Of a DNA stretch of 64,000 nucleotides, positions 4,550 through 49,588 are shown in pieces. Made by a program: the position numbers and the translations under genes. The notes under the pieces were generated by a model. It had not been told where the DNA came from, made no database searches, and was given only the letters and a program-made list of their open reading frames with translations. How positions within the stretch are numbered: the first letter of the stretch is position 1; each line of letters opens with the position of its first letter. The DNA is from an uncultured Candidatus Saccharibacteria bacterium. GTDB taxonomy: Bacteria > Patescibacteriota > Minisyncoccia > Minisyncoccales > Staskawiczbacteraceae. The stretch is taken from positions 5,746 through 69,745 of the forward strand of contig CAYRHW010000005.1 in the NCBI GenBank assembly GCA_964424305.1. The letters run 5' to 3'.

Positions 4550-4676
4550 GTTTTTTGATTATAAATAAAAAGCTGTGTTTCCACAGACAGAATAAAAATC
4601 TCGAAAGAGATCGTTTTCCTCGGCAGGGCTTACTTTTGTGCCTGCTGTCTATGGAACAATTTTTGATTGTGGCTGT
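4550..4676 (-). promoter_or_regulatory. structured rplJ 5' leader (L10-leader-like autoregulatory element, tentative)
   Basis: On the minus strand, CCATAGACAG (4645-4654) pairs over 10 bp with CTGTCTGTGG (4581-4590), enclosing an inner CAGG...CCTG helix. It sits between the promoter and the rplJ ATG. Confidence 0.4.
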
Positions 4677-6692: not shown

Positions 6693-7946
6693 TTAGCTTG
6701 GGTTGCTTACTCTCCCTAGAAACAGGATATTTCCCGTAGCATTATCCTGGATTAAAAAGATAAAAGGATGATCAGCTATGAATTCTAATTGGTCTGATGG
6801 GAAAGCAGATTTTAATTCCATTATGACCGCTGTAGCAGCAGCTGCCTCTGTCCCCTCTTCATTAACTTCAACAAATGCCTGATGAATAACTTCTGATATT
6901 CTAAGATCCTGCTTGCCATCCATTCCCGAAAAATCTGCCTGGTCAGAGAAAGCAACCGGCATACCCATATTACTTAGATCCCCTTTCATCGAATACTTTG
7001 TCTCTATTTTAAACTTTGGAAAATACACATTAACCTGTTTTTCAGTTAAGCCTGCCTTCAATTCTAGAAATTTCTCAGGAGTTAAGTATGCATCGACAGA
7101 AGAGATATTGTTCTTCGGCAGAAGAACAAGCATTGAAAGATCCTTACTATCGTAAGGTAATTCTAGAATCTGTAGATCGCTATTCTCTGCATAGTTAAAC
7201 TTGGCATCTTCTCCCTTTAAACTCATCATTTGGGCTTTTACTGTTTTATCGCTAGCAATATTAAAGTCCTGTTCTTTCGTGTCTTTCTTGTCAAACTGTA
7301 ATTGCCAGGTCCCTTTAAAGTAAATGGCATTTGTTAATACTAGCTTTGTAAGATTACTTAATACACCAGCGGGAATTAAATCCTTAATCTTGTCGTTAGT
7401 CTGATCTTCTACCCATTTATTAATAGTTAACCTTGCATCCTCTGCGGCATTAATAAAATCCAAGTTTGTTACTTCCCCGCCATAATAGTTTTTGATCAAC
7501 GAAAAATAGCTGTCTAGAAAAGCGAAATCCTTCTGAGCCCACAAAGCATTGGCTGTCTTCAGCTCATAGGTCTTACCTGCTTTGTTTATCTGATTATATA
7601 TTTTGGCAAAGGCAGGTTGCCTTACGCCAGCGTCCTTTGGAAAATGAAAAACGGCTTGAATTTCTTCTGCTGTCTTCCCCTTAGCTCCTTCGTAGACCAT
7701 GGCTAGCGCGGTAGATAAGCTATAGGGAGAAAAAAAGATATTCCCATCATTTGCCTCATACTTTTTATACAAATCAAAGGCAAATTGATTGTTTGCTAGA
7801 ATAACACCGGCCTCTGACTCAGGGAAAGACTTACTATCATCCAAAACTACTGGGTTATTCTCCGCTTTTGGCAAAAAAATCAATACTCCGGCCAATATGA
7901 CGATGATAACGAATAATATTACTGGCAGTATTATTATTTTATTCAT
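6693..7946 (-). CDS. serpin-family serine protease inhibitor, membrane-anchored/secreted
   Basis: Serpin length and motifs: FSPYSLSTALAMVYEGAKGKT, hinge/reactive-loop region EVNEEGTEAAAATAV, and C-terminal FIADHPFIFLIQDNATGNILFLGRVSNP. I chose the start at MNKIIILPV (hydrophobic anchor). Confidence 0.85.
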   Translation of the reverse strand: MNKIIILPVILFVIIVILAGVLIFLPKAENNPVVLDDSKSFPESEAGVILANNQFAFDLYKKYEANDGNIFFSPYSLSTALAMVYEGAKGKTAEEIQAVFHFPKDAGVRQPAFAKIYNQINKAGKTYELKTANALWAQKDFAFLDSYFSLIKNYYGGEVTNLDFINAAEDARLTINKWVEDQTNDKIKDLIPAGVLSNLTKLVLTNAIYFKGTWQLQFDKKDTKEQDFNIASDKTVKAQMMSLKGEDAKFNYAENSDLQILELPYDSKDLSMLVLLPKNNISSVDAYLTPEKFLELKAGLTEKQVNVYFPKFKIETKYSMKGDLSNMGMPVAFSDQADFSGMDGKQDLRISEVIHQAFVEVNEEGTEAAAATAVIMELKSAFPSDQLEFIADHPFIFLIQDNATGNILFLGRVSNPS

Positions 7947-8010: not shown

Positions 8011-8047
8011 AAAGCAAAAGCCCAGGTTCTAAGGAAAGAACCTGGGC
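8011..8047 (-). terminator. rho-independent terminator of the island-1 gene
   Basis: Minus strand has GCCCAGGTTCT-TTCCTT-AGAACCTGGGC followed by TTTTGCTTT. The hairpin overlaps the last codons of the ORF. Confidence 0.7.
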
Positions 8048-8397
8048 CAAAAAGTAACGACGGATAGAATAAAACCCGCGAGCAGCAGGAAAAAGATAAT
8101 CCCCGCTGCCAATGGGTGACGCTGACCGAACCTTCCGATTACTCGGCCGGTTCCAACAAGGAATCGGCGGAGCTGACGGAAGAACTGTCTGGTCACGCGC
8201 CAGCCCAGAACGAAAAGGGCCCTTACAACCCTCCTCAACATCTCTGCCAACCATCGGACAAGGGAACGCAACTGCCTCCCCATCCATCGATGGACGGCTC
8301 TCGGGCCACCAGCAATTCCCGAAACCATGATGGCGATTCCGTACACCATCAACATCAGGGTCAAAAGAGACCCGAGGACAGTCTCACTGGGATTCAT
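8029..8397 (-). CDS. GC-rich orphan: small membrane protein with two terminal TM helices and an Arg-rich amphipathic middle
   Basis: Start chosen at ATG 8397 (MNPSETVLGSLLTLMLMVYGIAIMVSG...) because GAAGGAG lies 8 nt upstream. The middle reads RQLRSLVRWLAEMLRRVVRALF...RQFFRQLRRFL. Confidence 0.6.
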   Translation of the reverse strand: MNPSETVLGSLLTLMLMVYGIAIMVSGIAGGPRAVHRWMGRQLRSLVRWLAEMLRRVVRALFVLGWRVTRQFFRQLRRFLVGTGRVIGRFGQRHPLAAGIIFFLLLAGFILSVVTFWPRFFP

Positions 8398-8456
8398 CGT
8401 CTTTACTCCTTCAAAGGACAATGGATTAGTTACTACATTTCACTAATCACAGATAT

Positions 8457-20295: not shown

Positions 20296-21669
20296 CTATT
20301 CCTGCAACCCCAAACTTCCCTGACTATTTAACACATTTCTTGTTGAAGGACCAACGTTACCAGTTTGCATTAATCCGTTTGCTGCCTGGTATCTTCTTAC
20401 GGCTGCTGCTGTAACATATCCATAATGTCCGGCAATAGCTCCGCCATAATATCCTTGATCTGTTAAGAGTTGCTGGAGCGCTATTACCTCAGCGCCAGAA
20501 GATCCGACTGTAAGAAAACTAGTAAATGTATATACGGGATAAACAGGATTACTTCCTACTGTTGCGGAAACAGCCCCACAGTTATTATTTAAATCACAAA
20601 TTACAAGTACCGCCACCCCATTTTTTATCCCATAGATTGTGAGCGTATTGCCCCCTATGCTCGGCTGAACAGTAGTTAAATCTGAATTATATGCAACACG
20701 GTAAGTGTTGGTGTATCCTCCATAATAGCTTCCGCCCAAAATGGAGATGGTCATACTCTGGCCGATGGATATAGTTGGATTATCCTGGCTAAAAGTTAGA
20801 AGTGAAGTATTTGTATAATATTGGTTGTTATTTGTTACAGAGATATATACAACGGCGCACTGTCCCCCGGCCTGACAGACAGAAACGTTCGCGCTACCAT
20901 AACTGTTGGCATAAATTATTAGGTTATTCCCACTGATGGAAACCGTGGCAATACTTTGCCCGGTATAGTTGGAAAAATAGTATCCTCCATTACCAGTGAT
21001 GGAAACAGTCGTGCTCTGTCCTTGGACTAAAGAAACACTAGTCTGACTTAGGGTTATAACCCCACCGCTATACCCCACAGTTGCCGTGATAGAAGCACAA
21101 ACAGTGCTTGAAGAGCAAACAGCGATAACAGCTGACCCATTACTTGAAACGCCGTAAAGCGACAAGGAACTACCTGCTATTGTAGCTTGAACAATGTTTG
21201 AGTTTGAATTAGAAGAGATATAGTAATTGGTGCCTGAGCCTCCGTAGATATAGACAGTTGTACTCTGCCCGACAGATATTGTTGGATTTGTCTGGCTAAA
21301 AGTAATCGCTGTCCCCTGATTTATAGATGGCCAAACTACAGTTGGTGATGATACATTATTAACGACAGCGTATACCAAAGTGTTAGAAGTAATTCCGTAC
21401 GTAGCCGAACTAATGGTAGTAGTTAAATATCCATTAGAATTAGTTGTACCGACATAGCTACCCTGTGGTATAGAGCCAGAAACAACAGAATAAAGGGCTA
21501 CACTAGAATTTGCAACCGCAGTTACTACAATCTGAACACTATCCCCTGTGCCAATACTTGTAGCTGATAATGTAACTGATGGTAGGGGCATAATTGCATA
21601 GGCCACGGAAGTAAATCCTACCACGAATAATGAGGCCACAACTAACGATATTTTTGTATATGTATTCAT
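20296..21669 (-). CDS. secreted protein with repeated Ig-like modules and a C-terminal peptidoglycan-binding domain
   Basis: The true start is MNTYTKISLVVASLFVVGFTSVAYA (signal peptide). At least three ~90-aa repeats follow (ITFSQTNPTISVGQSTTV..., ITLSQTSVSLVQGQSTTV..., LTFSQDNPTISIGQSMTI...), each with a Cys pair. The C-terminus GAEVIALQQLLTDQGYYGG...AAAVRRYQAANGL is PG_binding_1-like. Confidence 0.7.
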   Translation of the reverse strand: MNTYTKISLVVASLFVVGFTSVAYAIMPLPSVTLSATSIGTGDSVQIVVTAVANSSVALYSVVSGSIPQGSYVGTTNSNGYLTTTISSATYGITSNTLVYAVVNNVSSPTVVWPSINQGTAITFSQTNPTISVGQSTTVYIYGGSGTNYYISSNSNSNIVQATIAGSSLSLYGVSSNGSAVIAVCSSSTVCASITATVGYSGGVITLSQTSVSLVQGQSTTVSITGNGGYYFSNYTGQSIATVSISGNNLIIYANSYGSANVSVCQAGGQCAVVYISVTNNNQYYTNTSLLTFSQDNPTISIGQSMTISILGGSYYGGYTNTYRVAYNSDLTTVQPSIGGNTLTIYGIKNGVAVLVICDLNNNCGAVSATVGSNPVYPVYTFTSFLTVGSSGAEVIALQQLLTDQGYYGGAIAGHYGYVTAAAVRRYQAANGLMQTGNVGPSTRNVLNSQGSLGLQE

Positions 21670-21751
21670 AAGAATATTTAATAAATTAATTAGTATTAAC
21701 CTCGTACGCCTCAACATTAACATATCGCGAGAATGTTTCAAGGACTGATGT

Positions 21752-21800
21752 AAATAAAATCCCCGAGCGAGATTCCCATATTGGGTTTCTACGCTCGGGG
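21752..21800 (-). terminator. rho-independent terminator after the SPFH gene
   Basis: A 9-bp perfect stem CCCCGAGCG/CGCTCGGGG is followed on the minus strand by ATTTTATTT. Confidence 0.6.
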
Positions 21801-21842
21801 TATGTTGGACACTTACAGAACTTCCTGGCCGATGTCGCCGGT

Positions 21843-22787
21843 TCAGTCCTTGATCTGCTCGACCGGGGCGTTGGCCTTCTTCATCTCCGGATGCGGGCCG
21901 TCGGGCTTGAGCATCTGAGAAAGGTTGGTGTTTCCAACCATCTGCTTGACCTGGTCCGCGCTCGTAGAGTACGGGTACAGAATGAAGCAGTTGTTCGGAC
22001 CCATGGCCGCCTGACCCATCACGCGGATCTGGTGCCACATCAGGTACTCGGGAGCGCCGGCGAGCTGCTTCTTGATGATGTCGATGGACTCAGCCACCGC
22101 CTCGGCCTTCTTCAGCTCGACGAGCTTGTCGGCCGTCGCAATCTTGAGCTGGCCCTCACTACGCTTCAGGTCAGCCCGAACTTGAGCTTCCGCCGCCGCT
22201 TCCAGGAGCTGGATCTTCACCAACGATTCCTGGGCCTCGGTTATGCTCTTCGGCCAGTCGTAGTTGGTAATCTGTACATCCTCGATGGTCAGGGGCGTTT
22301 GTTTGGCCTCTTCCATCAAACGCTTGGCCACCTCGGTGGCGATCTTCGGGCTGTTAGCCACGGCCGTTTGTACGTCGGGCTGAACCTCAAAAAGCTGCCG
22401 GGGAATGGCCAGGACCTTCATCTGTAAAAACGTCGTGTAAAGTTGCTCGGCCGAGATGTCGTGCCCCTTGGCCGTGACCGTCTCGAACGCCTTGCGCAAC
22501 TGCTCGTCGTCTTCCGACGACTTGACCCTCACGGTGATGTCAACCCGCAGGTTGACCTTGCCTCCGACCAGGATGTCCAATTTCTCCTTGAAGGTTTGGC
22601 TGGTCGTCTCCAGGGTGTACATGTTGTCGTGGCCATAACAGGTGTGCCGGCCGGGCTTGAGGATGTCCTTCTCCCACCCGTTGGTGGTGCTGATCCGCCC
22701 GCGCTTGCCCTGGGGAACCGTCTCGCTGCATCCGACAGCGAAGGCCAACATCGAAACCGCCATTAGAATGCTCAGTGTTTTCTTCAC
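21843..22787 (-). CDS. SPFH/band-7 domain lipoprotein (GC-rich island)
   Basis: GTG start at 22787 with AGGAGA 6-7 nt upstream. The lipoprotein signal is VKKTLSILMAVSMLAFAVGC. The SPFH core is followed by TIEDVQITNYDWPKSITEAQES and an Ala/Glu-rich coiled coil (LLEAAAEAQVRADLKRSEG). Confidence 0.7.
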   Translation of the reverse strand: MKKTLSILMAVSMLAFAVGCSETVPQGKRGRISTTNGWEKDILKPGRHTCYGHDNMYTLETTSQTFKEKLDILVGGKVNLRVDITVRVKSSEDDEQLRKAFETVTAKGHDISAEQLYTTFLQMKVLAIPRQLFEVQPDVQTAVANSPKIATEVAKRLMEEAKQTPLTIEDVQITNYDWPKSITEAQESLVKIQLLEAAAEAQVRADLKRSEGQLKIATADKLVELKKAEAVAESIDIIKKQLAGAPEYLMWHQIRVMGQAAMGPNNCFILYPYSTSADQVKQMVGNTNLSQMLKPDGPHPEMKKANAPVEQIKD

Positions 22788-22862
22788 GTTTCTTCTCCTA
22801 TTCTCGTTTTCTGCGATCCGCCTAGCACAATGCTTACGGATTTTCACTTCTGGGTTGCTGCG

Positions 22863-23339
22863 TTACTTTTTCTCGACCGGTTGCGTCGCCGCAGAGTTAC
22901 GCTGACGAATCCTCTCGGCCTCGGCCTCCATGGCCTGGTCGAAATTCGTCAGCGCTTTCTCGTGTGGCTTGACTTCGGCGCGCTCCTTCAATTCGGCGCG
23001 CGCCTTGTCCATCTCGTCCTTAGTCGGCAGCTTTGTTTGCTGCAGGCGTTTCTGCTCGGCGTTTTGCGCCGGGTTTTCGTAGGTCGAGACGTTTGTTGTT
23101 GCGTCCTGCATGGCGTTCCACGCGAGGACTCCGCCGACGGCGAACAAGCCGACGACCACGATGGTCGCGATGATGGGGCCGATCGGAGACGGCGTCAGAA
23201 CCGTGTTCTTGCCCGCCGCCTCCACCTTGGTGCCGTATGCCAGCCACATCTTGGTGAGGCCCCACGCCACCAACACTGCCACCACCAACAGCACGATCCA
23301 GTACAGATTGCTCCAGATTAATGTTCCTGCTCCGATCAT
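22863..23339 (-). CDS. 2-TM membrane protein with charged coiled-coil tail, first gene of the SPFH operon
   Basis: Start at ATG 23339 (MIGAGTLIWSNLYWIVLLVVAVLVAWG) with an AGGAAAGGA RBS. The second TM is PIIATIVVVGLFAVGGVLAW. The tail is KDEMDKARAELKERAEVKPHEKAL. Confidence 0.6.
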   Translation of the reverse strand: MIGAGTLIWSNLYWIVLLVVAVLVAWGLTKMWLAYGTKVEAAGKNTVLTPSPIGPIIATIVVVGLFAVGGVLAWNAMQDATTNVSTYENPAQNAEQKRLQQTKLPTKDEMDKARAELKERAEVKPHEKALTNFDQAMEAEAERIRQRNSAATQPVEKK

Positions 23340-23475
23340 GATGCGTTCCTTTCCTAAAAAAGTCCACTGGTTTATGCAAACAGATTCCGTTCTGAAAACG
23401 TTTGTTCTATAAATGTCTCCTAAATGGAAATGTACTATTAATGACGACACACATCGCCATTAACCTATCGTCGTG

Positions 23476-23505
23476 ATTATAGCACACAATTCAAACTATT
23501 GTCAA
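23476..23505 (-). promoter_or_regulatory. sigma70-type promoter of the 2TM-SPFH operon
   Basis: Minus strand reads TTGACA (23500-23505), an 18-nt spacer, then TGCTATAAT (-10 at 23476-23481). Confidence 0.55.
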
Positions 23506-23540
23506 TATCGCGACGGCAACAATCTACCTCTTATGATATA

Positions 23541-23572
23541 TATGAAAAGTTCCCATACCGGAGTATGGGAAC
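23541..23572 (-). terminator. rho-independent terminator of Cys-rich mini-gene A
   Basis: A 10-bp perfect stem GTTCCCATAC-TCCG-GTATGGGAAC is followed by TTTTC on the minus strand. Confidence 0.75.
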
Positions 23573-23596
23573 ATGTTGTGTTTTGCAGCAAAGTTG

Positions 23597-23809
23597 TCAG
23601 GCCACGGTCTGGCCCTCTGGTGTTATAAACCAGAATCCGACATCCGGTCGGCGCGTGCTTTTGCAGGGACCGAGATGCCCCTTTGGAAGGTTGCAGACAA
23701 CCGGGTGGCTTGGATGTAATGAGACACAAAGTGGCTCACTGCAAACACCACACCGACAGTCTCTGGGTACGGCGGGGACAGCGACCGATATTCCGCACAA
23801 ATGACTCAC
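23597..23809 (-). CDS. Cys/His-rich mini-protein A (70 aa), unknown family
   Basis: GTG start with AAGGAG 6 nt upstream, plus its own promoter and terminator. It shares the core C-x-C-G-V...L-C-x-S-L-x-P-x2-P-V-x-C-N-x2-K-G-H-x-G-x-C-x2-T-x2-P-x2-G-x-W with the ORF at 23976-24182. Confidence 0.6.
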   Translation of the reverse strand: MSHLCGISVAVPAVPRDCRCGVCSEPLCVSLHPSHPVVCNLPKGHLGPCKSTRRPDVGFWFITPEGQTVA

Positions 23810-23871
23810 TCTTCGCTCCTTCGAACTAAAGGTACTATGATATCAGGTCGACTCCCGACCCGAACGTTAAC

Positions 23872-23899
23872 ATTATATCAAATATAAAGACGGTGTCAA
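23872..23899 (-). promoter_or_regulatory. sigma70-type promoter of mini-gene A
   Basis: Minus strand reads TTGACA (23894-23899), a 16-nt spacer, then TATAAT (23872-23877). Confidence 0.55.
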
Positions 23900-23910
23900 T
23901 GATAGGCTGT

Positions 23911-23946
23911 GGAAAAGAGAAGGTCCAGTACATGCAGTACTGGACC
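23911..23946 (-). terminator. rho-independent terminator of Cys-rich mini-gene B
   Basis: A 10-bp perfect stem GGTCCAGTAC/GTACTGGACC with a 5-nt loop is followed by TTCTCTTTTC on the minus strand. Confidence 0.75.
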
Positions 23947-23975
23947 ATTTGTTCGTTACTTCCCCGAAAGGAAGT

Positions 23976-24182
23976 CTAGGTCAGGATCGGATCGCCGGCC
24001 TTCTTTTGCCAGATCCCTAGCTCGGGGTGCAAAGTGTTCCGGCACCGTCCCTTGTGACCCTTCTTTCGGTTGCAGGCAACCGGCCTCATCGGCTGCAAGC
24101 TGCCACACAGCTCTACCCCACACTTGCACTTCGTGCTCGTGAGGTTCTCCAGCATGTGTTTGTGGCCACTCTTTTCCTTCAT
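23976..24182 (-). CDS. Cys/His-rich mini-protein B (68 aa), paralog of A
   Basis: ATG start with a GAAGGAG RBS. The core is CKCGVELCGSLQPMRPVACNRKKGHKGRCRNTLHPELGIW. Confidence 0.6.
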   Translation of the reverse strand: MKEKSGHKHMLENLTSTKCKCGVELCGSLQPMRPVACNRKKGHKGRCRNTLHPELGIWQKKAGDPILT

Positions 24183-24245
24183 CTTCTTACTCCTTCTGAT
24201 TCCAGATTGCCTAAAACCTAAACCAAAATCTAACTGAATGATATA

Positions 24246-24273
24246 ATTATAGCATATATATCTAAGTTGTCAA
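24246..24273 (-). promoter_or_regulatory. sigma70-type promoter of mini-gene B
   Basis: Minus strand reads TTGACA (24268-24273), a 16-nt spacer, then TGCTATAAT (-10 at 24246-24251). Confidence 0.55.
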
Positions 24274-24344
24274 ACCAAGATGCTTTATTTAAAAAAAGAG
24301 AGCTCAGCACATATAGCGCCAAGCCCTTTCTCTTTGAATTAATC

Positions 24345-24626
24345 CTACGGAATATTGCTTTGGATTACTTCCCTTAGGAGTTTTCTCCATCGGCCGACAT
24401 GGATGAAAGAACGAATAGCAAGTGCTATCAATATAACTTCCATCAGAATGAATGGCCAACTGCTCTTCAAATCAACCAGGCCACCACCCAAGAGAATAAT
24501 ATGAAAGATTGCCGTCATAATCGTACATCCAACAAACGCAATGGCGACTTTTAGTGTGTCAGTAATGTAGGCCCCTAACCAAGCACTAATCGCCCTCTTG
24601 TTAAGGAGCATTGTGAGTAAAAACAT
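24345..24626 (-). CDS. small membrane protein (about 90 aa), start uncertain (24626 or 24611)
   Basis: Two or three hydrophobic helices (VAIAFVGCTIMTAIFHIILLGGG, WPFILMEVILIALAIRSFI). It overlaps the purC-purE stop. A hairpin plus T7 lies downstream at ~24290-24340. Confidence 0.45.
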   Translation of the reverse strand: MFLLTMLLNKRAISAWLGAYITDTLKVAIAFVGCTIMTAIFHIILLGGGLVDLKSSWPFILMEVILIALAIRSFIHVGRWRKLLREVIQSNIP

Positions 24627-26070
24627 CTCTCTTAACCGGCTTTGAAGTTCGAGGCTTGACCGGTGGCAACTCGCCACTTTCAATGCGCTCAAGCAACTCA
24701 GCCAACCCTGCCGGACCAGTGTAGGCCTGGCCAGTCATTTCGTTAAAGATTACGGGCTGACCCGGAATCCGCAAAATGGAAAGCTGAGCGGCCAACAAGT
24801 CAATATCATCCGCCTCGCCCAGGGCGACACCAGCCACTCGGATGTTTCGGTCGAAATACCGAGCCCAAGCATCAATGATCCCTGGTAAAGCAAGGGCCTT
24901 GCCACCAACTCCAATCACCACGTCGTATTCGAGTAATTCCTCGGTCTCAGTGAGACGCATTACGTCCCAGGGATTCCGATGACAACTCATGACATGGACA
25001 TTGACGCTTTCGTCACTGAAATTCCCGGCCATCCTGACTTTGGGCAGATCGGTCTCACTGCCACAAACAATCAAGACTTTCTTGGCCGGTCTTTCCAGAA
25101 CAGCAACGTGCATTACGCTGCTCAAGTATTGTTCAATGGTTCTCCCAGTCAACCGCCAGAAAATGTAACGATAGGTCTGCGTTGTCTGATCAATGAGGTC
25201 CTGGGGAATAACCATGGCGTGAGCCTTGGCGACATCATCGGGACTTTCGGGTTTAAGTTTGTTGATTCCCTGGCCAATGCCCCAATTTCTGACAAGTTGT
25301 TTGTCTTTTGGCGAGGGAGATTTCCTGCCAGTAGCGGGTGTCCGGCTTTCCAGCCACTCACTACGGTCCAGAAAACGACAGGAGTCGGGCGTGCCGACCT
25401 CATCGCAAACCGTACCATCTTCAGCAAGTTCGAATTTCCCATCTCCCAATATGATGCCATTCTTTATGGCGATGTCAGAAATGATCTGGAAAATCTGCGA
25501 GAGTAAAATTGTGTGCTGAGGATACTTTTTCCTGACTTCGTCAGCCGACATATGTTCATCATGGCCCTCTTCGGCCTTGGTTGTCGGCGTATCAAGAATG
25601 AACGGAAGTTTATCGCCATCCTGCAACCCCGGCATAAGCCGATGGCCACAGATCTGCCCGGTTTCATCATAGGCGGTCTTCCCAGAACCCAACAGAAGAT
25701 AACGGCCGATAAACTCGATCGGCGCCATTTTCTTTTTGCGAACAACCATTGCCCGCGACTGCAAGTCAATATTGCCACGTAAATTCTCTGGCAAATACTT
25801 ATCAATGTCCGCTCCAGCGGCAACGAAGTGAGTTTTGATCCCAAATTCCGAAAGGATGTTAAGCCAGAAATGATTTATTGCGTTCAAAACAATCCCCTTC
25901 AAAGGGACCAGGGCATTAAGAACGAAATCAAAGATACTGATTCCATCCGTTGCCACTACCAATAGGTTGCCATCGGGCAACTCGTAGGTGTCGCGGACTT
26001 TACCGCGAAATAGCAATGTTAATCCTGGTAGCAGTGCTACCCCGGCTCTTGCCGGTGAAAGTGTGGCCAT
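24601..26070 (-). CDS. bifunctional SAICAR synthetase / AIR carboxylase-type protein (PurC-PurE fusion)
   Basis: The N-terminal ~310 aa are PurC-like (LLFRGKVRDTYELPDGNLLVVATDGISIFDFVL). The C-terminal ~170 aa are PurE-like (KVLIVCGSETDLPKV, VHVMSCHRNP, VVIGVGGKALALPGII). Confidence 0.75.
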   Translation of the reverse strand: MATLSPARAGVALLPGLTLLFRGKVRDTYELPDGNLLVVATDGISIFDFVLNALVPLKGIVLNAINHFWLNILSEFGIKTHFVAAGADIDKYLPENLRGNIDLQSRAMVVRKKKMAPIEFIGRYLLLGSGKTAYDETGQICGHRLMPGLQDGDKLPFILDTPTTKAEEGHDEHMSADEVRKKYPQHTILLSQIFQIISDIAIKNGIILGDGKFELAEDGTVCDEVGTPDSCRFLDRSEWLESRTPATGRKSPSPKDKQLVRNWGIGQGINKLKPESPDDVAKAHAMVIPQDLIDQTTQTYRYIFWRLTGRTIEQYLSSVMHVAVLERPAKKVLIVCGSETDLPKVRMAGNFSDESVNVHVMSCHRNPWDVMRLTETEELLEYDVVIGVGGKALALPGIIDAWARYFDRNIRVAGVALGEADDIDLLAAQLSILRIPGQPVIFNEMTGQAYTGPAGLAELLERIESGELPPVKPRTSKPVKRDVFTHNAP

Positions 26071-26256
26071 AAAGGCTCCTTTCCTGATTCCTCTTAGGAA
26101 TCTTCTAATCGTTCTTTAAAAGATCGGTCATTATACTGCAAGTAAACTTTAATAAAATAACGGGGGGATGTCAACGTTAGGTGAATATATTTTCCAAGAA
26201 AAAAGCCCTCTGTCGGAACAAAAGGGCCTCATACTCTTATCTTTAGAACAGCGGGG

Positions 26257-27399
26257 TTATCGAACTCCAAGCGTTGCACCCACGAACTCTATGCCTTTCG
26301 GTTCAATCACAACCCTTTTCTCATCACTTTTCTCAATATGTCCAGCATAGAATACCTCGAAGGGCATTTCGTGCTCTTTGAGCATATCCCAGATTCTGGG
26401 CACATCATCCTGGGGTACGTAAATGGTAAAGCCAGCGCCCATATTGAGGTTACCATATGCCTCAAGATCATCGACTGGTCCCTGGGCTTGGATAAAATCG
26501 AAAATGGGAAGCTGTTTTGGTAGGACTTCAATGACGTAGGTGAATGGGTTTGCTGCCCGCATAAGCTTACGCCAACCATGCCCAGTAATGTTGACTGCGT
26601 AATTGATGTCGATGCCAAGATCGAGACACTGCTCAATAAATGCCACGTAAAGGTGCGTTGGATCAAGCAACACCTCACCGTACATTCTTCCGTCGCTGAG
26701 TCTGGTGAGATATCCTTCGGGAAGGTTATCAGCAATTTTTCTTGCCATCGTTAGGCCATTGGCCCCGATACCCGAACTGGCAAGAAAAATGATAGCGTCG
26801 CCATGTTGAATGTTGACGGGATTTATCAACCGTTCCCTCGGTTTCACAATACCCATCGCCGAACCAGAAAGGACAGCGGTCCCGGGCGTGATAATGCCTT
26901 TAAGGGTTGGGGTCTCTCCCCCACCCCAGACACATCGCACAAGTATGCATGCTTTTTTCCAGCCATCGATAAGATCATGGCATCGCTGTTCGTCATCAAA
27001 CCATCTCGAATCACCAACAGCAAGATGCATCGCCACAGAAAGTGGCAGTGCGCCAAGGGTGATCATGTCATTGACAATCATCGCCACGGCGTCCTGTGCG
27101 ATTTGATCGTAACACGTTCTTCCCAATACACCTTGGATTGCGCTGGCAATTCTCATCTGCCCTCTAAATGCATCGGCAACAAGGTTCTTCGTACCAAGAC
27201 CTTCTTCAACATGGGCGAGGAAAGCCTCTCCGATGTCGATTAGATAGCAGCTCTCGCCACGAGACCAACCCACCTCGGAAAATCCAAAACGTTTCAAGCT
27301 GTTTACGGTCTTAAGTCCGGCCAATTGCGCCTTGCGCTTGAATGGGTCCATTGCGTCGTAATCAACGCCGACGGCAGCATAGGTCATTTTCTTTTCCAT
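26257..27399 (-). CDS. PurM/AIR-synthase-family protein (probable phosphoribosylformylglycinamidine cyclo-ligase)
   Basis: AIRS-family landmarks are VGVDYD, EGLGTKN, DAVAMIVNDMITLGALPL, GGGETP, SSGIGANG and ITGHGW. The start is at MEKKM (AAGGAG 8 nt upstream). It is longer and more divergent than canonical PurM. Confidence 0.6.
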   Translation of the reverse strand: MEKKMTYAAVGVDYDAMDPFKRKAQLAGLKTVNSLKRFGFSEVGWSRGESCYLIDIGEAFLAHVEEGLGTKNLVADAFRGQMRIASAIQGVLGRTCYDQIAQDAVAMIVNDMITLGALPLSVAMHLAVGDSRWFDDEQRCHDLIDGWKKACILVRCVWGGGETPTLKGIITPGTAVLSGSAMGIVKPRERLINPVNIQHGDAIIFLASSGIGANGLTMARKIADNLPEGYLTRLSDGRMYGEVLLDPTHLYVAFIEQCLDLGIDINYAVNITGHGWRKLMRAANPFTYVIEVLPKQLPIFDFIQAQGPVDDLEAYGNLNMGAGFTIYVPQDDVPRIWDMLKEHEMPFEVFYAGHIEKSDEKRVVIEPKGIEFVGATLGVR

Positions 27400-27557
27400 C
27401 TCTTTTTCTCCTTTCTGGAAATATTCACTTTTCAAATTGCATAGTTAGCCAAAATATATTTTAAGGCTACGTATAGATAAAATTACACTACTTTGTTGGG
27501 AATGTAAATAAAAAAAATCGCCGGGGGGTGAGTCCAGCGACATTGTTTTTTTCAAAA

Positions 27558-30594
<3,037 letters not shown>

Positions 30595-30758
30595 AGGGAC
30601 CTCACTTTCTTTTTGTGTGGTTAAACAAAAAAATGTAAAAGGGCATAAATTCTTTTTTTCACATTACCTTAAAACTAAATGGCAAGTCAAATAAAAAATG
30701 CAAAAGAAAAGGCCTAGAAGCTTTCGCGTCTTGACCTTTGTGAGTTTGTTGAATCCTA

Positions 30759-32381
30759 TCAGTGAGCGAAAAATCCTCGAGCCTCAATGTCCGGTAACTG
30801 GAGGAGCAGGACACCGTTCCGCTCGCAGAGTGCTTGGACTTTTTCGTCGCCGATCTTGCTGCCGCTGGTGCTGAAAATGGCCGTGATGCCGGCGTCAATC
30901 AAAATCTTGACAGCATCCGTGTACGGGAAGAACGAATCACTGCAAGCAACGGCGCCTCGCAGCATACCCGCGTGTTTGGCATCTCTCGCCCGCATGACAG
31001 CCAACTTGGCGGCCCAGACACGAGCCTGCTGGCCCACGCCGTTACCGATAAGCATGCCATTCTTGACAATGGTAATGGTATTGGAATTGGAGGTCGCACA
31101 GACCGCCCAGGCTAAGGCCAGGTCGGTCACGATTCTGTCAAAATTCTTGGGCTTGTCCTCAAACGCCAACGCTTTGTGGTCGACGAGATTGGGGATATAT
31201 GTGTAGTTCGGCTGGACGATGAATCCTCCACGAACCTGCCGGAGACGTGGCGTGGTATCAAGCGATGCACAGTCGGCGAGTGCATGGGAAATCATCAATC
31301 GGCAACGTCCACCCTTACGTTCGAAAAATGCGCCGACGCCTTCGGTGAAAGCAGGGGCGACGATGCCATCGAACTTCTGCACCTTGCCCTTCTTCATGCC
31401 AGCGGTAACCATGATTTCCGCCAACTCTTCATTGATCGGAAAATTGGTCATTACCCAACCACCGAATACAGCGAGGCTGTCGCCTTTCACCACGGCCCTG
31501 ACGACTTCCTCGCGATCACCGACAGCGGCTCCGCAGGGATTGCCGTGCTTGACGGCGACGGCAATGCGCGGAATGGTGCCGAAGTTTGTTTGGAATATTG
31601 CGACAATGTGCGTCAACGTTTGCAACAACCGGTCGATATCGGTCCAGTTGCAATAGCCTAAGGGAGCACCTTCAAGCAACAGGATCTTGTCCAGCGCGAG
31701 GGGGTCATCGTTACCGGTAGAAAAAAGTCCGGCCGGCGACTGTGGCCCGTTTTCGCCCTTGGGGATACCAACAGCCTTCTGACCGAGAATCCCGTTGAAC
31801 TGGCCGTTGCCGTGGAAAATCGCCGAAGTGGCGACGTATGTTGCCACCTCAAATTCAGCAATAGCACGCAACGATTGTATGGTCTCAGCGGGTACCTCTC
31901 CCTGAGTTTCCAAAATGTGGAGAATGTATTCCCTGTCCTGCATCCGGCAGATAACGATTCTTCCGCCCTTGGCAGCCGAACGAACCATGCACGGTCCGCC
32001 AATATCGGTCATATCGACTACCGAGTCAATGGTGGCACCGAGCTTCGCGATTGCCATGGCTAACGGATAAAAATCGCAGACTACCATACCGATAATGGGA
32101 ATATTCAACCCTTCCAGCTCGGCAATATCTGCCGGCTTCTTAAGGTCTGCTAATAGCGCGGCGTGCACCTGTCGCGACAAGGTCACGACACGGTGACCAA
32201 GGATGGGGCCACCTCCGACGAGTTCAGCCACGTCCTTGACTGGCACACCCGCCTCGGTCAATGCCTTGGCTGTTCCTCCGGAGCTGATAATTCTCCATCC
32301 TAATTTCACCAATCGTTGCGCGAACTCCACAACGCCTTTCTTGTTATAAACTGAGATTAATGCCCAGCGTTCTGCACTCAC
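30759..32381 (-). CDS. purH: bifunctional AICAR transformylase / IMP cyclohydrolase
   Basis: GTG start with a GGAGA RBS. The N-terminus is MGS-like (ALISVYNKKGVVEFAQRLVKLGWRIISSGGTAKAL). Also contains VAVKHGNPCGAAV and a C-terminal FFAH. Confidence 0.9.
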   Translation of the reverse strand: MSAERWALISVYNKKGVVEFAQRLVKLGWRIISSGGTAKALTEAGVPVKDVAELVGGGPILGHRVVTLSRQVHAALLADLKKPADIAELEGLNIPIIGMVVCDFYPLAMAIAKLGATIDSVVDMTDIGGPCMVRSAAKGGRIVICRMQDREYILHILETQGEVPAETIQSLRAIAEFEVATYVATSAIFHGNGQFNGILGQKAVGIPKGENGPQSPAGLFSTGNDDPLALDKILLLEGAPLGYCNWTDIDRLLQTLTHIVAIFQTNFGTIPRIAVAVKHGNPCGAAVGDREEVVRAVVKGDSLAVFGGWVMTNFPINEELAEIMVTAGMKKGKVQKFDGIVAPAFTEGVGAFFERKGGRCRLMISHALADCASLDTTPRLRQVRGGFIVQPNYTYIPNLVDHKALAFEDKPKNFDRIVTDLALAWAVCATSNSNTITIVKNGMLIGNGVGQQARVWAAKLAVMRARDAKHAGMLRGAVACSDSFFPYTDAVKILIDAGITAIFSTSGSKIGDEKVQALCERNGVLLLQLPDIEARGFFAH

Positions 32382-32528
32382 CTCTGTCTCCTAGTCCCTA
32401 TGAACTTGTCGAGGTACAACCTGGCTCGAGAACGTCTCAAGCCCTTACATAGACTAGACTACACCTAATTACAAAAAAAACAATAAAAAAAGAGCCCGCT
32501 GTCGACGGACTCGCTGTACCCCAGTGGG

Positions 32529-33059
32529 CTATATGCCAAACACTGATGATACAACCAGCAAAGATAGAGCGGCATAAATACCAGCGACGAAATCGTCAAG
32601 CATTACGCCTTTTGCGCTTTGCATTCTATCAAAAAATCTTGTAGGAGGGATCTTGGTAATATCGAAGAAACGGAAAAAAGCAAAGGCCAGCCCCAGAGCC
32701 AACCAAGTTAACTTAACTTGGATAAAAAGCAAAGGGAGACATGATGTCAGCATCCCAAAAACTTCGTCAATTACGATCTGGTTCTGATCGTGGACTCTTT
32801 GTTTCCCTTTTTGATCAATCATTTTACCTAATCCAATCTCAGCCTTGGGAACACACCACAAACCCAAAAGGAAAACTACTGCCATTACCAGCAGATAAGA
32901 AATGACTGTCCCGGCCTTAGCCAGCTCCAATGCCAGATAGCACAAGGGCAGAGAGAAAAAGCTACCATATGTTCCGCCCATCCCCTTCCCGAACATGGGT
33001 GGGATTAAACCGCAGTAAAACCAAGTCGCCATAAAAACTGCTGCCTTGTTTTTCATCAT
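32529..33059 (-). CDS. pgpA: phosphatidylglycerophosphatase A family membrane protein
   Basis: Contains FYCGLIPPMFGKGMGGTYGS, DQNQIVIDEVFG, FRFFDITKIPP and GVMLDDFVAGIYA. The start is at MMKNK (GGGAGGA RBS), 28 nt after the guaA stop. Confidence 0.7.
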   Translation of the reverse strand: MMKNKAAVFMATWFYCGLIPPMFGKGMGGTYGSFFSLPLCYLALELAKAGTVISYLLVMAVVFLLGLWCVPKAEIGLGKMIDQKGKQRVHDQNQIVIDEVFGMLTSCLPLLFIQVKLTWLALGLAFAFFRFFDITKIPPTRFFDRMQSAKGVMLDDFVAGIYAALSLLVVSSVFGI

Positions 33060-33087
33060 CTTTTCCTCCCATCTGTTTTGGAGACTT

Positions 33088-34716
33088 TCATCCCCATTCA
33101 ATTGTAGCTGGCGGTTTGTCTGAGGTTCTGTAAACCACGGCTCCAACTTCTGGAACTTCATTTGTAATTCTTTGAGAAATGCGTTTTATAAAATCCCAGG
33201 GTAATTCTGCCGCTTGAGCAGTGAAACCATTGACGCTCCATACCGCCCATAAGGCAACAACCACACCACTTACGGCATCGTCGCCCTTTGTACAAGTTGT
33301 GACTGATTGGGTGACCACTGCTCCGGCCTGCCAAATACCCGCGTAGAGATCTTGCTCTCGCAATCCCTTAATATAGATGTCGTCAATTTGGCGAGCAATC
33401 CTTAAGTTGTCGGCAGTAATCTGTCCCTCGATCCTTACAATCAAGCCGGGGCCAGGGAATGGCTGACGGACAAGGAGAGATTCCGGAACTCCAGCCGAAC
33501 GACCAATATCTCGACCCGTATCCTTAACGCAATCATCAAGCGGAGTGAGCTCCTCTACAGAAAATCCCAAACCTACATTGTGGTGAAGTTTGATTTGGGC
33601 CTTCGCCGCTTGCGTGGCATATCCCTGTCCACTTTCTGAAATGTCAGTGTAAAGCGTTCCCTGTGCTATAAAGCTGGCCCCAAACTCCTTGGCCTCTTCT
33701 TCAAGCACAGCTTTGTAAACGCTTCGCATCGCCACTCTCTTCTCTTTCATTGTTTCTTTTTCGCGTAAGACATCCAAAAACCTATCAGTTGCATCGACAA
33801 TCCTTAACTCAACCCAGTCTTGATTTGCAAAATACTCCAACACGTGGGCCTCATCATCCGGCCGATCGACTCCCCGGATGTAAACTGCCCTTAACTGTCC
33901 CTTCTTGCCAACGAGAGTAGCTTTCAAAAGATAGGCAACGGTCGATGAATCAGACCCACCGGATAGTGCCAACAGGACTTTTTTGTCGCCTATCTTTTCT
34001 CGTAGGGCAACTATCTTCTGTTGAGCCACCTCCTTGGCCGGATACTTGTCTTTGGCTCCGCAAATCCCAAAACAAAAGTTCTCGAAGATCTTGAGACCCT
34101 TCGTTGTCTCCGTCACCTCGGGGTGAAATTGCACCCCCCAAAGATGTCTATAATTTGCCGCTGCAACGGGAGAATTTTCCGTTTTGCCTAAAACAAAAAA
34201 TTCGCTGATAAGACTTCTTGAAATCGGGCTTTCGGGTTTTTCCACCATATCTCCGTGGCTTTCCAAAACCGGCATCCCATTTTCACAACCCCTCAAAATA
34301 CCACCCCAGTCAAGAATTGAAAGTTTATGTGTGCCGAACTCTCTTCTCGCTGATTGTCTAACGGAACAACCAATATGGTGTGCCCATAATTGGAATCCTA
34401 AGCAAATACCCAGAACTGGTATTCCTAAATCAAAAATACTGAAGTCAAATGGCAAAACATTTTGGTAGACAGAAACGGGGCCACCAGAAAGTATCAAGCC
34501 TGTCGGCCCGACCTTTTGAACATCGGCCGCTCTCACCTGGCTAGGATCTGCCACGAGGCAAAAAACTCCTAGCTTTTCTAGTGCTTGTTTAATTAAGTGG
34601 TCAAACTGACTGCCCAAAGAAAACAATAAAAAGAGTTCGCTCGTCTTACGGATTGCCTTCTCTTCGGCGATTTCCCGAAGAACCCTTTCGTCAACCCTCT
34701 TTAATGTATGTATCAT
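33088..34716 (-). CDS. guaA: GMP synthase (glutamine-hydrolysing)
   Basis: The GATase domain has GICLGFQL and GVQFHPE. The ATP-PPase domain has ALSGGSDSS. The C-terminus ends PPATIEWG. Confidence 0.9.
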   Translation of the reverse strand: MIHTLKRVDERVLREIAEEKAIRKTSELFLLFSLGSQFDHLIKQALEKLGVFCLVADPSQVRAADVQKVGPTGLILSGGPVSVYQNVLPFDFSIFDLGIPVLGICLGFQLWAHHIGCSVRQSARREFGTHKLSILDWGGILRGCENGMPVLESHGDMVEKPESPISRSLISEFFVLGKTENSPVAAANYRHLWGVQFHPEVTETTKGLKIFENFCFGICGAKDKYPAKEVAQQKIVALREKIGDKKVLLALSGGSDSSTVAYLLKATLVGKKGQLRAVYIRGVDRPDDEAHVLEYFANQDWVELRIVDATDRFLDVLREKETMKEKRVAMRSVYKAVLEEEAKEFGASFIAQGTLYTDISESGQGYATQAAKAQIKLHHNVGLGFSVEELTPLDDCVKDTGRDIGRSAGVPESLLVRQPFPGPGLIVRIEGQITADNLRIARQIDDIYIKGLREQDLYAGIWQAGAVVTQSVTTCTKGDDAVSGVVVALWAVWSVNGFTAQAAELPWDFIKRISQRITNEVPEVGAVVYRTSDKPPATIEWG

Positions 34717-49087: not shown

Positions 49088-49588
49088 TTACTTGCGACGG
49101 GAGAAAACGAAGCGATAATCGCCAGCCCAGGCGCTGCCGGGGCTGTCACAATAGCCGTCGAGCCACAGGCCATCGTCATCGCGCCCCACGCCGAACAACC
49201 TGAGGCTGCCATCCGAACCGGTAATCGGCTCCGTGCCGATCACCAGCCACTCTCCCTTGGGCTGATCCGCGTACTGCAGACGGAGCTGGAGGGCGACCTC
49301 GGGTGCGCAAAGTTGGAGACCACGTGATTTGGCACGGGCGTAGATGTCCTCCCTCTTAGCTCCATCCTTGAAAGTGAAACGGGCGACGGTGACGACGACG
49401 AGGTCCACTTCGGTTCCCTCGGTGGCTACCGTGAGACCGACCTTTTTGAGGATGTCATCGGCCCAGTCGCCGATCTTCATTCCGCCAGCCTCGATGGCCT
49501 GGCGGAATTCATCAACGGTTTTGGGACCGGTGCCGAGCTTCACAGTCTTGAAGACCCTGAAGCTGTAGCCACCTTTCTTCTGCCTCAT
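49088..49588 (-). CDS. GC-rich orphan: hypothetical cytoplasmic protein (166 aa)
   Basis: Track ORF with a GAAAGGA RBS. I recognise no motif and see no TM helix or signal peptide. Confidence 0.55.
   Translation of the reverse strand: MRQKKGGYSFRVFKTVKLGTGPKTVDEFRQAIEAGGMKIGDWADDILKKVGLTVATEGTEVDLVVVTVARFTFKDGAKREDIYARAKSRGLQLCAPEVALQLRLQYADQPKGEWLVIGTEPITGSDGSLRLFGVGRDDDGLWLDGYCDSPGSAWAGDYRFVFSRRK

Follow-up and report, generated by a model that had tools for sequence, protein, structure and literature searches.

The bacterial metallothioneins SmtA and BmtA are small Cys/His proteins with a zinc-finger-like core. In haloarchaea, the C(P)XCG proteins and Brz are small zinc-finger micro-proteins, some of which are regulators (PMC11241148, PMC2253796). 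Cysteines and a histidine also make up the N-terminal zinc site of the nuclease DraIII (PDB 4L0K), which consists of C4, C22, H28 and C32; replacement of any one of these residues by alanine inactivates the enzyme (PMC3996161). Here, we describe two tandem mini-genes, W1 and W2, located in a stretch of 64,000 nucleotides from an uncultured Candidatus Saccharibacteria bacterium (contig CAYRHW010000005.1; the whole stretch is called the window below). These two genes belong to an undescribed family of small Cys/His-rich proteins. Its members are extremely scarce in public data, and its core, to judge by the putative ligands kept in all members, most likely binds zinc.

W1 and W2 are each an independent transcription unit composed of a sigma-70 promoter, a Shine-Dalgarno sequence, a short open reading frame (ORF) and a hairpin terminator. 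Their features, in window coordinates, are as follows:

24273-24246, minus strand: W1 promoter, TTGACA, 16-nt spacer and TG-extended TATAAT, 12/12 consensus positions
24190..24197, minus strand: W1 ribosome-binding site (RBS), AGAAGGAG, of the GGAG type, 7 nt ahead of the ATG
24182..23976, minus strand: W1 coding sequence, ATG start, 68 amino acids (aa), a long-form member of the family
W1 residues: H-x-H at 7/9 and C-x-C at 19/21, core ligands C26, C37, H43 and C47, then W58
23912..23946 (hairpin 23946-23922), minus strand: W1 intrinsic terminator, perfect 10-bp stem, 5-nt loop and T-rich tail
23899-23872, minus strand: W2 promoter, TTGACA, 16-nt spacer and TG before TATAAT, 12/12 consensus positions
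23816..23822, minus strand: W2 RBS, GAAGGAG, 6 nt ahead of the GTG
23809..23597, minus strand: W2 coding sequence, GTG start, 70 aa, a long-form member of the family
W2 residues: H3-x-C5 and C18-x-C20-x2-C23, core ligands C28, C39, H45 and C49, then W60
23541..23572 (hairpin 23572-23549), minus strand: W2 intrinsic terminator, perfect 10-bp stem, 4-nt loop and TTTT tail

An earlier note, made from the letters of the sequence, had reported these ORFs, promoters, RBS and terminators, and all of them were found in place on the minus strand, both promoters matching the consensus at 12/12 positions. The motif string that it gave for the two proteins is correct residue by residue, and counting confirms the common set of 5 Cys and 1 His, the Cys totals being 5 in W1 and 7 in W2. 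The paralogy that it claimed agrees with the BLASTP alignment of W1 with W2 (22/44 identities, 50%, E-value 2e-14), from which the two genes read as diverged paralogues. The two terminators have fold z-scores of about -3.5. High expression of W1 and W2 would be expected from their promoter, RBS and terminator signals, on which this expectation is based. By inspection, neither protein has a hydrophobic N-terminus or a membrane segment, and both are presumably cytoplasmic. W1 has an isoelectric point (pI) of 9.8, with 14 Lys/Arg residues, a charge that would suit nucleic-acid binding. Four public contigs carry W1 and are 100% identical over the region, leaving no usable polymorphism. W2 has no gene call in any public assembly of the genome; one assembly instead has a 48-aa ORF called on the strand opposite to W2.

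Perfect TTGACA-N16-18-TATAAT sites occur 8 times in the 64-kb window, 3 of them inside the 800 bp of W1 and W2, for an expectation of about 0.02 by our own arithmetic (12 fixed bases, three spacings, both strands, 64 kb). The third perfect promoter of this region lies outside the mini-gene family and belongs to the next unit, which encodes a membrane protein of 158/195 aa followed by an SPFH protein:

23505-23476, minus strand: perfect promoter of the membrane protein-SPFH unit

With 8 perfect promoters per 64 kb, textbook sigma-70 signals are unusually frequent in this organism.

An exhaustive phmmer search with W2 against 1.84 billion cluster representatives returned seven matches. Four of them are genuine small Cys/His proteins: P0001 (which is exactly W1), P0004 (86 aa), P0006 (53 aa) and P0007 (83 aa). 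The three others (P0002, P0003 and P0005) are long repeat proteins, each of which scored over 4-7 separate stretches; no Cys/His core was found in them on inspection and they were discarded as artefacts. P0008 (96 aa), a protein labelled hypothetical in a metagenome-assembled genome of Candidatus Staskawiczbacteria, came from a profile search, and three word-indexed searches gave nothing new except this protein. At the DNA level, a degenerate pattern of the core led to one more metagenome contig (L018); the same kind of scan on genome contigs gave 10 matches, 9 of which we judged to be due to chance, the last one corresponding to the known Staskawiczbacteria locus (L005). A six-frame scan with hidden Markov models detected no copy other than W1 and W2 in the window, three copies in L018 (L018a, L018b and L018c) and a second, uncalled copy directly after P0008 in L005:

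L005 6272-6499: second L005 member, uncalled, overlapping the end of the annotated P0008 gene by ~20 nt

The family now comprises 10 distinct members of 50-96 residues (8 beyond W1 and W2) in 6 distinct DNA stretches, that is, ten members in about 15 billion proteins plus the DNA scans. The true number is probably higher, because gene callers overlook such ORFs. The family appears to be restricted to genomes of the Candidate Phyla Radiation (CPR)/Patescibacteria type. The earlier note had not recognised it, rightly so, as no member has a significant match in Pfam, NCBIfam, PHROGs or PADLOC; our literature search on small Cys-rich or zinc-finger proteins of CPR bacteria found nothing relevant.

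All 10 members keep the pattern C-x10-13-C-x5-H-x3-C. In W1 numbering, C26, C37, H43, G45 and C47 are invariant (10/10) and G42 and W58 nearly so, the universal core being C-x10-13-C-[NT]-x2-[KR]-[GD]-H-x-G-x-C-x5-P-x2-G-x-W. The conservation of the Cys/His pattern in homologues, on which the earlier note had staked its proposal, is thus found at these five positions throughout the family. Members occur in two forms. The three short ones (P0006, L018b and L018c; 50-53 aa) are hardly more than the core and contain three or four Cys, with the three invariant Cys positions filled in each. The seven long ones, including W1 and W2, carry two additional pairs: one, C-x(1,2)-C, immediately precedes the core, and the other, [H/C]-x-[H/C] (for example H-K-H, H-R-H, H-S-H, H-L-C, C-G-H or C-P-H), is located close to the N-terminus. 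In the alignment of the 10 members, the two accessory pairs either co-occur or are both missing, the short forms having neither. The earlier note had proposed a metal-binding or disulfide knot of five Cys plus one His: metal binding remains reasonable in view of the alignment with DraIII described below, but the conserved unit was wrongly drawn, since universal conservation is limited to 3 Cys and 1 His, and the three short members have no C-x-C.

DraIII provides, by analogy, a solved precedent for the family motif as a zinc site. The family profile aligns with DraIII residues 16-33 (KHFPHKCQLPLGHSGKCL; E-value 1.6, not significant), placing C37, H43 and C47 exactly on C22, H28 and C32, three crystallographic zinc ligands, and the sequence C-Q-L-P-L-G-H-S-G-K-C (residues 22-32) on the family sequence C-N-L-P-K-G-H-x-G-x-C. 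The DraIII-type CCHC site, C ... C-x5-H-x3-C, is present in the family at the motif level only, its last three ligands being identically spaced. Both also have a fourth Cys, upstream, but 17 residues off in DraIII and 10-13 residues off in the family, and DraIII is a nuclease of 227 residues, whereas the module of the family stands alone.

The mini-proteins could also be metallothionein-like peptides for metal buffering or storage, or zinc chaperones. They are indeed small, rich in Cys and His and preceded by strong promoters, and the layout C-x-C-x2-C ... G-H loosely recalls that of bacterial SmtA/BmtA. Their Cys content, 3 to 7 per member with 3 Cys and 1 His universal, is however far below that of metallothioneins, which have about 9 or more; no match to the Pfam family Metallothio_Pro was obtained with E-values up to 10, and the conservation of residues that are not ligands (G42, G45, the Pro and W58) points to a defined fold. 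We consider such a metal-handling role unlikely. The haloarchaeal C(P)XCG proteins and Brz are likewise stand-alone cytoplasmic proteins of less than 100 aa with Cys knuckles. Nevertheless, the members of the present family have at most one C-x(1,2)-C-G (none in the short forms) and a core of the type C...C-x5-H-x3-C, they come from a different host lineage and no sequence relation to the haloarchaeal proteins was detected. They do not qualify as C(P)XCG proteins as defined in haloarchaea (PMC11241148).

A sequence resemblance in viruses concerns HNH endonucleases. A scan of 2.9 million viral contigs with the motif CN[LF]xKGHxGxC retained 27 contigs, 17 of which encode proteins with an HNH layout by inspection (...C-x-CC-G-E...FLTLDHINNDG...LLCMNCNFAKGHYGxCPH). 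The three of these proteins that were scanned all match phrog_2255 (HNH endonuclease; E-values from 8.9e-10 to 9e-14) as well as endonuclease VII families, and have no Pfam model above threshold. The mini-proteins and the phage HNH proteins have in common the 11-residue CN[FL]xKGHxGxC, preceded in both by a C-x-C(C)-G knuckle. The hhalign comparison of the two families gives a probability of 72% over 16 columns only, with no similarity outside them, and this value is circular, the HNH set having been picked with the family-derived motif, so that the agreement in signature is not independent either. In the PDB, the profile of the phage HNH proteins matched zinc regions of LGP2/DHX58 only, from which nothing could be learned. 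The first C-x(1,2)-C knuckle is present in 7/10 members, while C-x10-13-C takes the place of the second, C-x2-C knuckle; the C-N-x2-K-G helix signature that follows the second knuckle is found in the family (the HNH set was chosen by the same pattern). The FLTLDH...N catalytic hairpin has no counterpart in the mini-proteins, in which no conserved His or Asp occurs between the first knuckle and C37 (the catalytic His of the DH/HH type, at the end of strand beta-1, is invariant in the phage FLTLDH). They are thus predicted not to be nucleases, because the catalytic His/Asn hairpin is missing. Conversely, the P-x2-G-x-W tail belongs to the mini-proteins and is absent from the HNH proteins, and the stricter signature including it is absent from the 2.9 million viral contigs. 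No HNH or endonuclease VII profile of Pfam or PHROGs matched a mini-protein with E-values up to 10. No test run places the family in the HNH superfamily, and descent from an HNH zinc module is a plausible lead rather than a finding.

Two observations concern the viral loci themselves. In the 17 phage HNH/endonuclease VII proteins (from loci L019-L043), an invariant C-terminal CNF[AS]KGHxGxCPH follows the second knuckle and may be an extra zinc site. Five viral loci (L030, L031, L035, L036 and L038) have in common a short ORF, FY[ND]PCNFSKGHKGSCSVRGHDD..., which is at most 39 codons long and contains the same signature.

The likeness to HNH proteins raises the question whether the ORFs are decaying, functionless remnants of HNH/endonuclease VII homing-nuclease genes. 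Such an origin would account for the CN[LF]xKGHxGxC common to the 17 phage proteins, the three scanned matching phrog_2255, for the first knuckle C-x-C-G-V-E, which by eye resembles the HNH C-x-C-C-G-E, and for the loss of the catalytic segment. Decay is difficult to reconcile with ten intact ORFs of matching length, most with their own promoter, RBS and terminator (no clear RBS was seen for the two L005 copies), with a codon-position pattern of purifying selection (see below), with the family-specific C-terminal P-x2-G-x-W, with the position between gatC and mreB kept in both L005 and L018, or with the end of the hhalign similarity outside 16 columns. Altogether, we regard gene remnants as highly unlikely.

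We favour the reading that the family consists of non-catalytic zinc-binding mini-proteins, to which, taken as a whole, we give a probability of roughly 60%. The core would bind one Zn(II) through Cys3His in every member, and the two accessory pairs of the long members would probably form a second, four-ligand zinc site; the short forms would then fold around one structural zinc ion and the long forms around two. The proteins would be small zinc-stabilised modules that bind either a partner protein or a nucleic acid, and these small binders would probably act as regulators or adaptors. The family would belong to a familiar general kind, the small Cys/His zinc-binding proteins, the family itself being new.

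Several points weigh against this reading. Zinc binding, like translation and expression, is deduced from the sequence; the match to DraIII is statistically insignificant and the HNH comparison circular, as stated above. AlphaFold2 models of W1 and W2, computed with alignments of six sequences, are poor (mean predicted local distance difference test scores of 54 and 50, respectively) and Foldseek found no match in the PDB. Several small Haloferax proteins that carry zinc-finger motifs fail to bind zinc (PMC11241148). The pI values of the family range from 5.7 to 9.8, and therefore charge gives no support to a general role in nucleic-acid binding. Finally, no conserved partner gene was found among the loci compared, which gives no hint of a target.

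The ten ORFs of the W1/W2 family are intact and kept in the same frame across genomes of 34-42% GC, most of them with promoters and RBS, and we regard it as settled that they are protein-coding genes. In the other members for which DNA is available, the -35 box is TTGACA or TTGATA and the -10 box is near consensus, while both L005 copies have no clear RBS. Among nine DNA copies with codons threaded on the protein alignment, mean pairwise identities at codon positions 1, 2 and 3 are 0.51, 0.49 and 0.31, respectively, an alignment made at the protein level somewhat favouring positions 1 and 2. The genes are also flanked by RNA hairpins, which were located as follows:

23958..23975, minus strand: W1 3' hairpin, 7 bp with a UUCG loop, directly 3' of the stop codon
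23843..23863, minus strand: hairpin in the W2 5' untranslated region (UTR), 8 bp with the loop GGAGU, upstream of the RBS
L018 2131-2152, 2387-2408 and about 7030-7050; L006 about 1200-1222: 5' hairpins of other members
L018 5' UTR hairpin RNA: TCGCGAGGATCGCGA
L018 2362-2381, 2585-2604 and 7243-7258: 3' hairpins

GC-rich hairpins of 7-8 bp are found from a few to ~20 nt upstream of the RBS in W2, L018a, L018b, L018c and L006, with different stem sequences, and are missing in W1, L007 and L005a. A 22-nt element (TCGCGAGGATCGCGATACAACA) is 100% identical in front of two L018 copies that are otherwise diverged in their coding sequences; GGA occurs both in its loop and in the RBS. The 5' hairpin could be the site for a translational regulator. 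On the other side, the stop codon is followed by a hairpin whose loop is UUCG or UUUG; it comes immediately in W1 and no more than ~20 nt further on in L018a, L018b and L018c, and precedes the true terminator, except in L018a, where the next gene comes instead.

These hairpins on both sides of the ORFs, the UUCG hairpins past the stop codons and the 22-nt 5' UTR element of L018, identical while the coding sequences diverged, could suggest that the region works mainly at the RNA level, through small RNAs or cis-regulatory elements, with the ORFs being incidental. Yet, conservation is at the amino-acid level, in one frame and with RBS, in genomes that differ in GC, and a search of positions 23300-24500 against Rfam 15 gave no match at the gathering score nor at E-values up to 1. 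The flanking hairpins look like mRNA UTR elements involved in stability or translational control, which is the better reading of them, and a region acting mainly as RNA appears very improbable. Combining the HNH likeness with these hairpins, one could further imagine that the mini-proteins are CPR-restricted, catalytically dead zinc modules derived from HNH proteins and domesticated as abundant mini-regulators, either binding their own 5' UTR hairpin to control their translation or acting as dominant-negative decoys of phage HNH/terminase nucleases, the tandem copies having different specificities; we consider this scenario speculative and distinctly unlikely.

Tandem copies are present in three loci: the window (two copies), L018 (two copies and a third one 4.5 kb away) and L005 (two copies). 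In L005, L018 and L006, the family genes are divergent beside gatC-gatA, and in L005 and L018 they stand ahead of mreB-proS...rseP. The P0006 gene comes after nrdD-nrdG and is followed by two further small genes. In the window, the neighbours of W1 and W2 are purC/E and the SPFH unit. The earlier note had suggested a link with the SPFH operon, which finds no echo elsewhere in the family, other members adjoining gatCA/mreB or nrdDG.

This setting bears on two other explanations. Short, Cys-rich proteins in tandem diverged copies, one of them (P0006) encoded just after a radical-SAM gene, might be precursors from which secreted or post-translationally modified Cys-rich peptides of ribosomal origin are made, for example of the SCIFF type. 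The radical-SAM gene in question, however, is located after nrdD and its product shows the domain pair of NrdG, so that it is the ribonucleotide reductase activase; no maturase, protease or exporter is encoded beside the copies in the window, L005 and L018, and the proteins have neither a signal peptide nor a leader/core layout, the whole core being conserved. A peptide precursor is, in our opinion, extremely improbable. Alternatively, the mini-proteins could be host decoys or anti-phage, anti-defence or toxin-modulating factors that mimic the zinc module of phage HNH proteins. The motif in common with the phage HNH family would fit such a role, as would the small size, duplication and independent transcription of the genes and, in the window, their place in a block of atypical composition. 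The earlier note had speculated in the same direction, on anti-defence or toxin modulation, and this suggestion is not borne out: PADLOC assigned the 10 members to 0 families, the neighbours are housekeeping genes (gatCA, mreB, proS, nrdDG, purCE), no recognisable defence or mobile-element gene lies beside the unit in the window or in the flanks of L005 and L018, and the full signature is lacking in the viral contigs. Decoys or defence-related factors are quite improbable.

The composition of the window is heterogeneous. The GC content at third codon positions (GC3) is about 0.35 for the genome, 0.44-0.63 for the purine genes (24.6-34.7 kb), 0.80 for W1, 0.72 for the membrane protein, 0.80 for the SPFH protein and 0.54 for W2, so that the mini-genes are located at the edge of a compositionally atypical block. 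One high-GC3 island extends over 21843-24182 (with the membrane protein at 22863-23450), and two lone ORFs of unknown function, at 8029-8421 and 49088-49588, have GC3 values of 0.62 and 0.73. The intergenic DNA among the high-GC3 genes is AT-rich and contains the consensus promoters, W2, which lies between them, reaching only 0.54. A perfect 10-nt inverted repeat around the two-gene unit (23535-23544 and 24253-24262) was judged to be due to chance in this AT-rich DNA.

The remainder of the window encodes three tRNAs, an L10 leader, dnaE, thrS, gatB, a MiaB-like enzyme, thyA, folA, a DUF5667 protein and the purine genes. A phage origin of the window was discarded, this gene content being bacterial and neither blastn nor megablast giving a match in 50,697 phage records. 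The gene content and the taxonomy of the single homologue that bears a name point to a genome of the CPR/Patescibacteria type. The purine genes (24601-34716, minus strand) comprise a purC-purE fusion (489 aa), purM, purA, guaB, purH and guaA and have a GC content of 0.47-0.55, above that of the rest of the window; such a run is unusual for a CPR-like genome, which suggests horizontal acquisition. The L10 leader match (4557-4672, minus strand), upstream of an rplJ-like ORF, scores 44.5 bits for a gathering score of 44 bits. The longest ORFs of the peptidoglycan-binding protein (20296-22038) and of the SPFH protein (21843-22847) overlap by ~195 nt; their listed starts are probably too far upstream, as public calls start later (314 aa for the SPFH protein).

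These mini-genes illustrate that small proteins are systematically missed in annotation, W2 being uncalled and the second Staskawiczbacteria copy having surfaced only by a six-frame search. In the tiny genomes of CPR/Patescibacteria, a gene that is retained with consensus signals, and often in several copies, is probably useful. If the link with HNH proteins were true, the family would be a case in which a nuclease scaffold has shrunk to a zinc knuckle standing alone. At present it is one more uncharacterised family of small proteins, but one that is now defined by ten members, invariant putative ligands and, by analogy with DraIII, a solved structural precedent for its predicted metal site.

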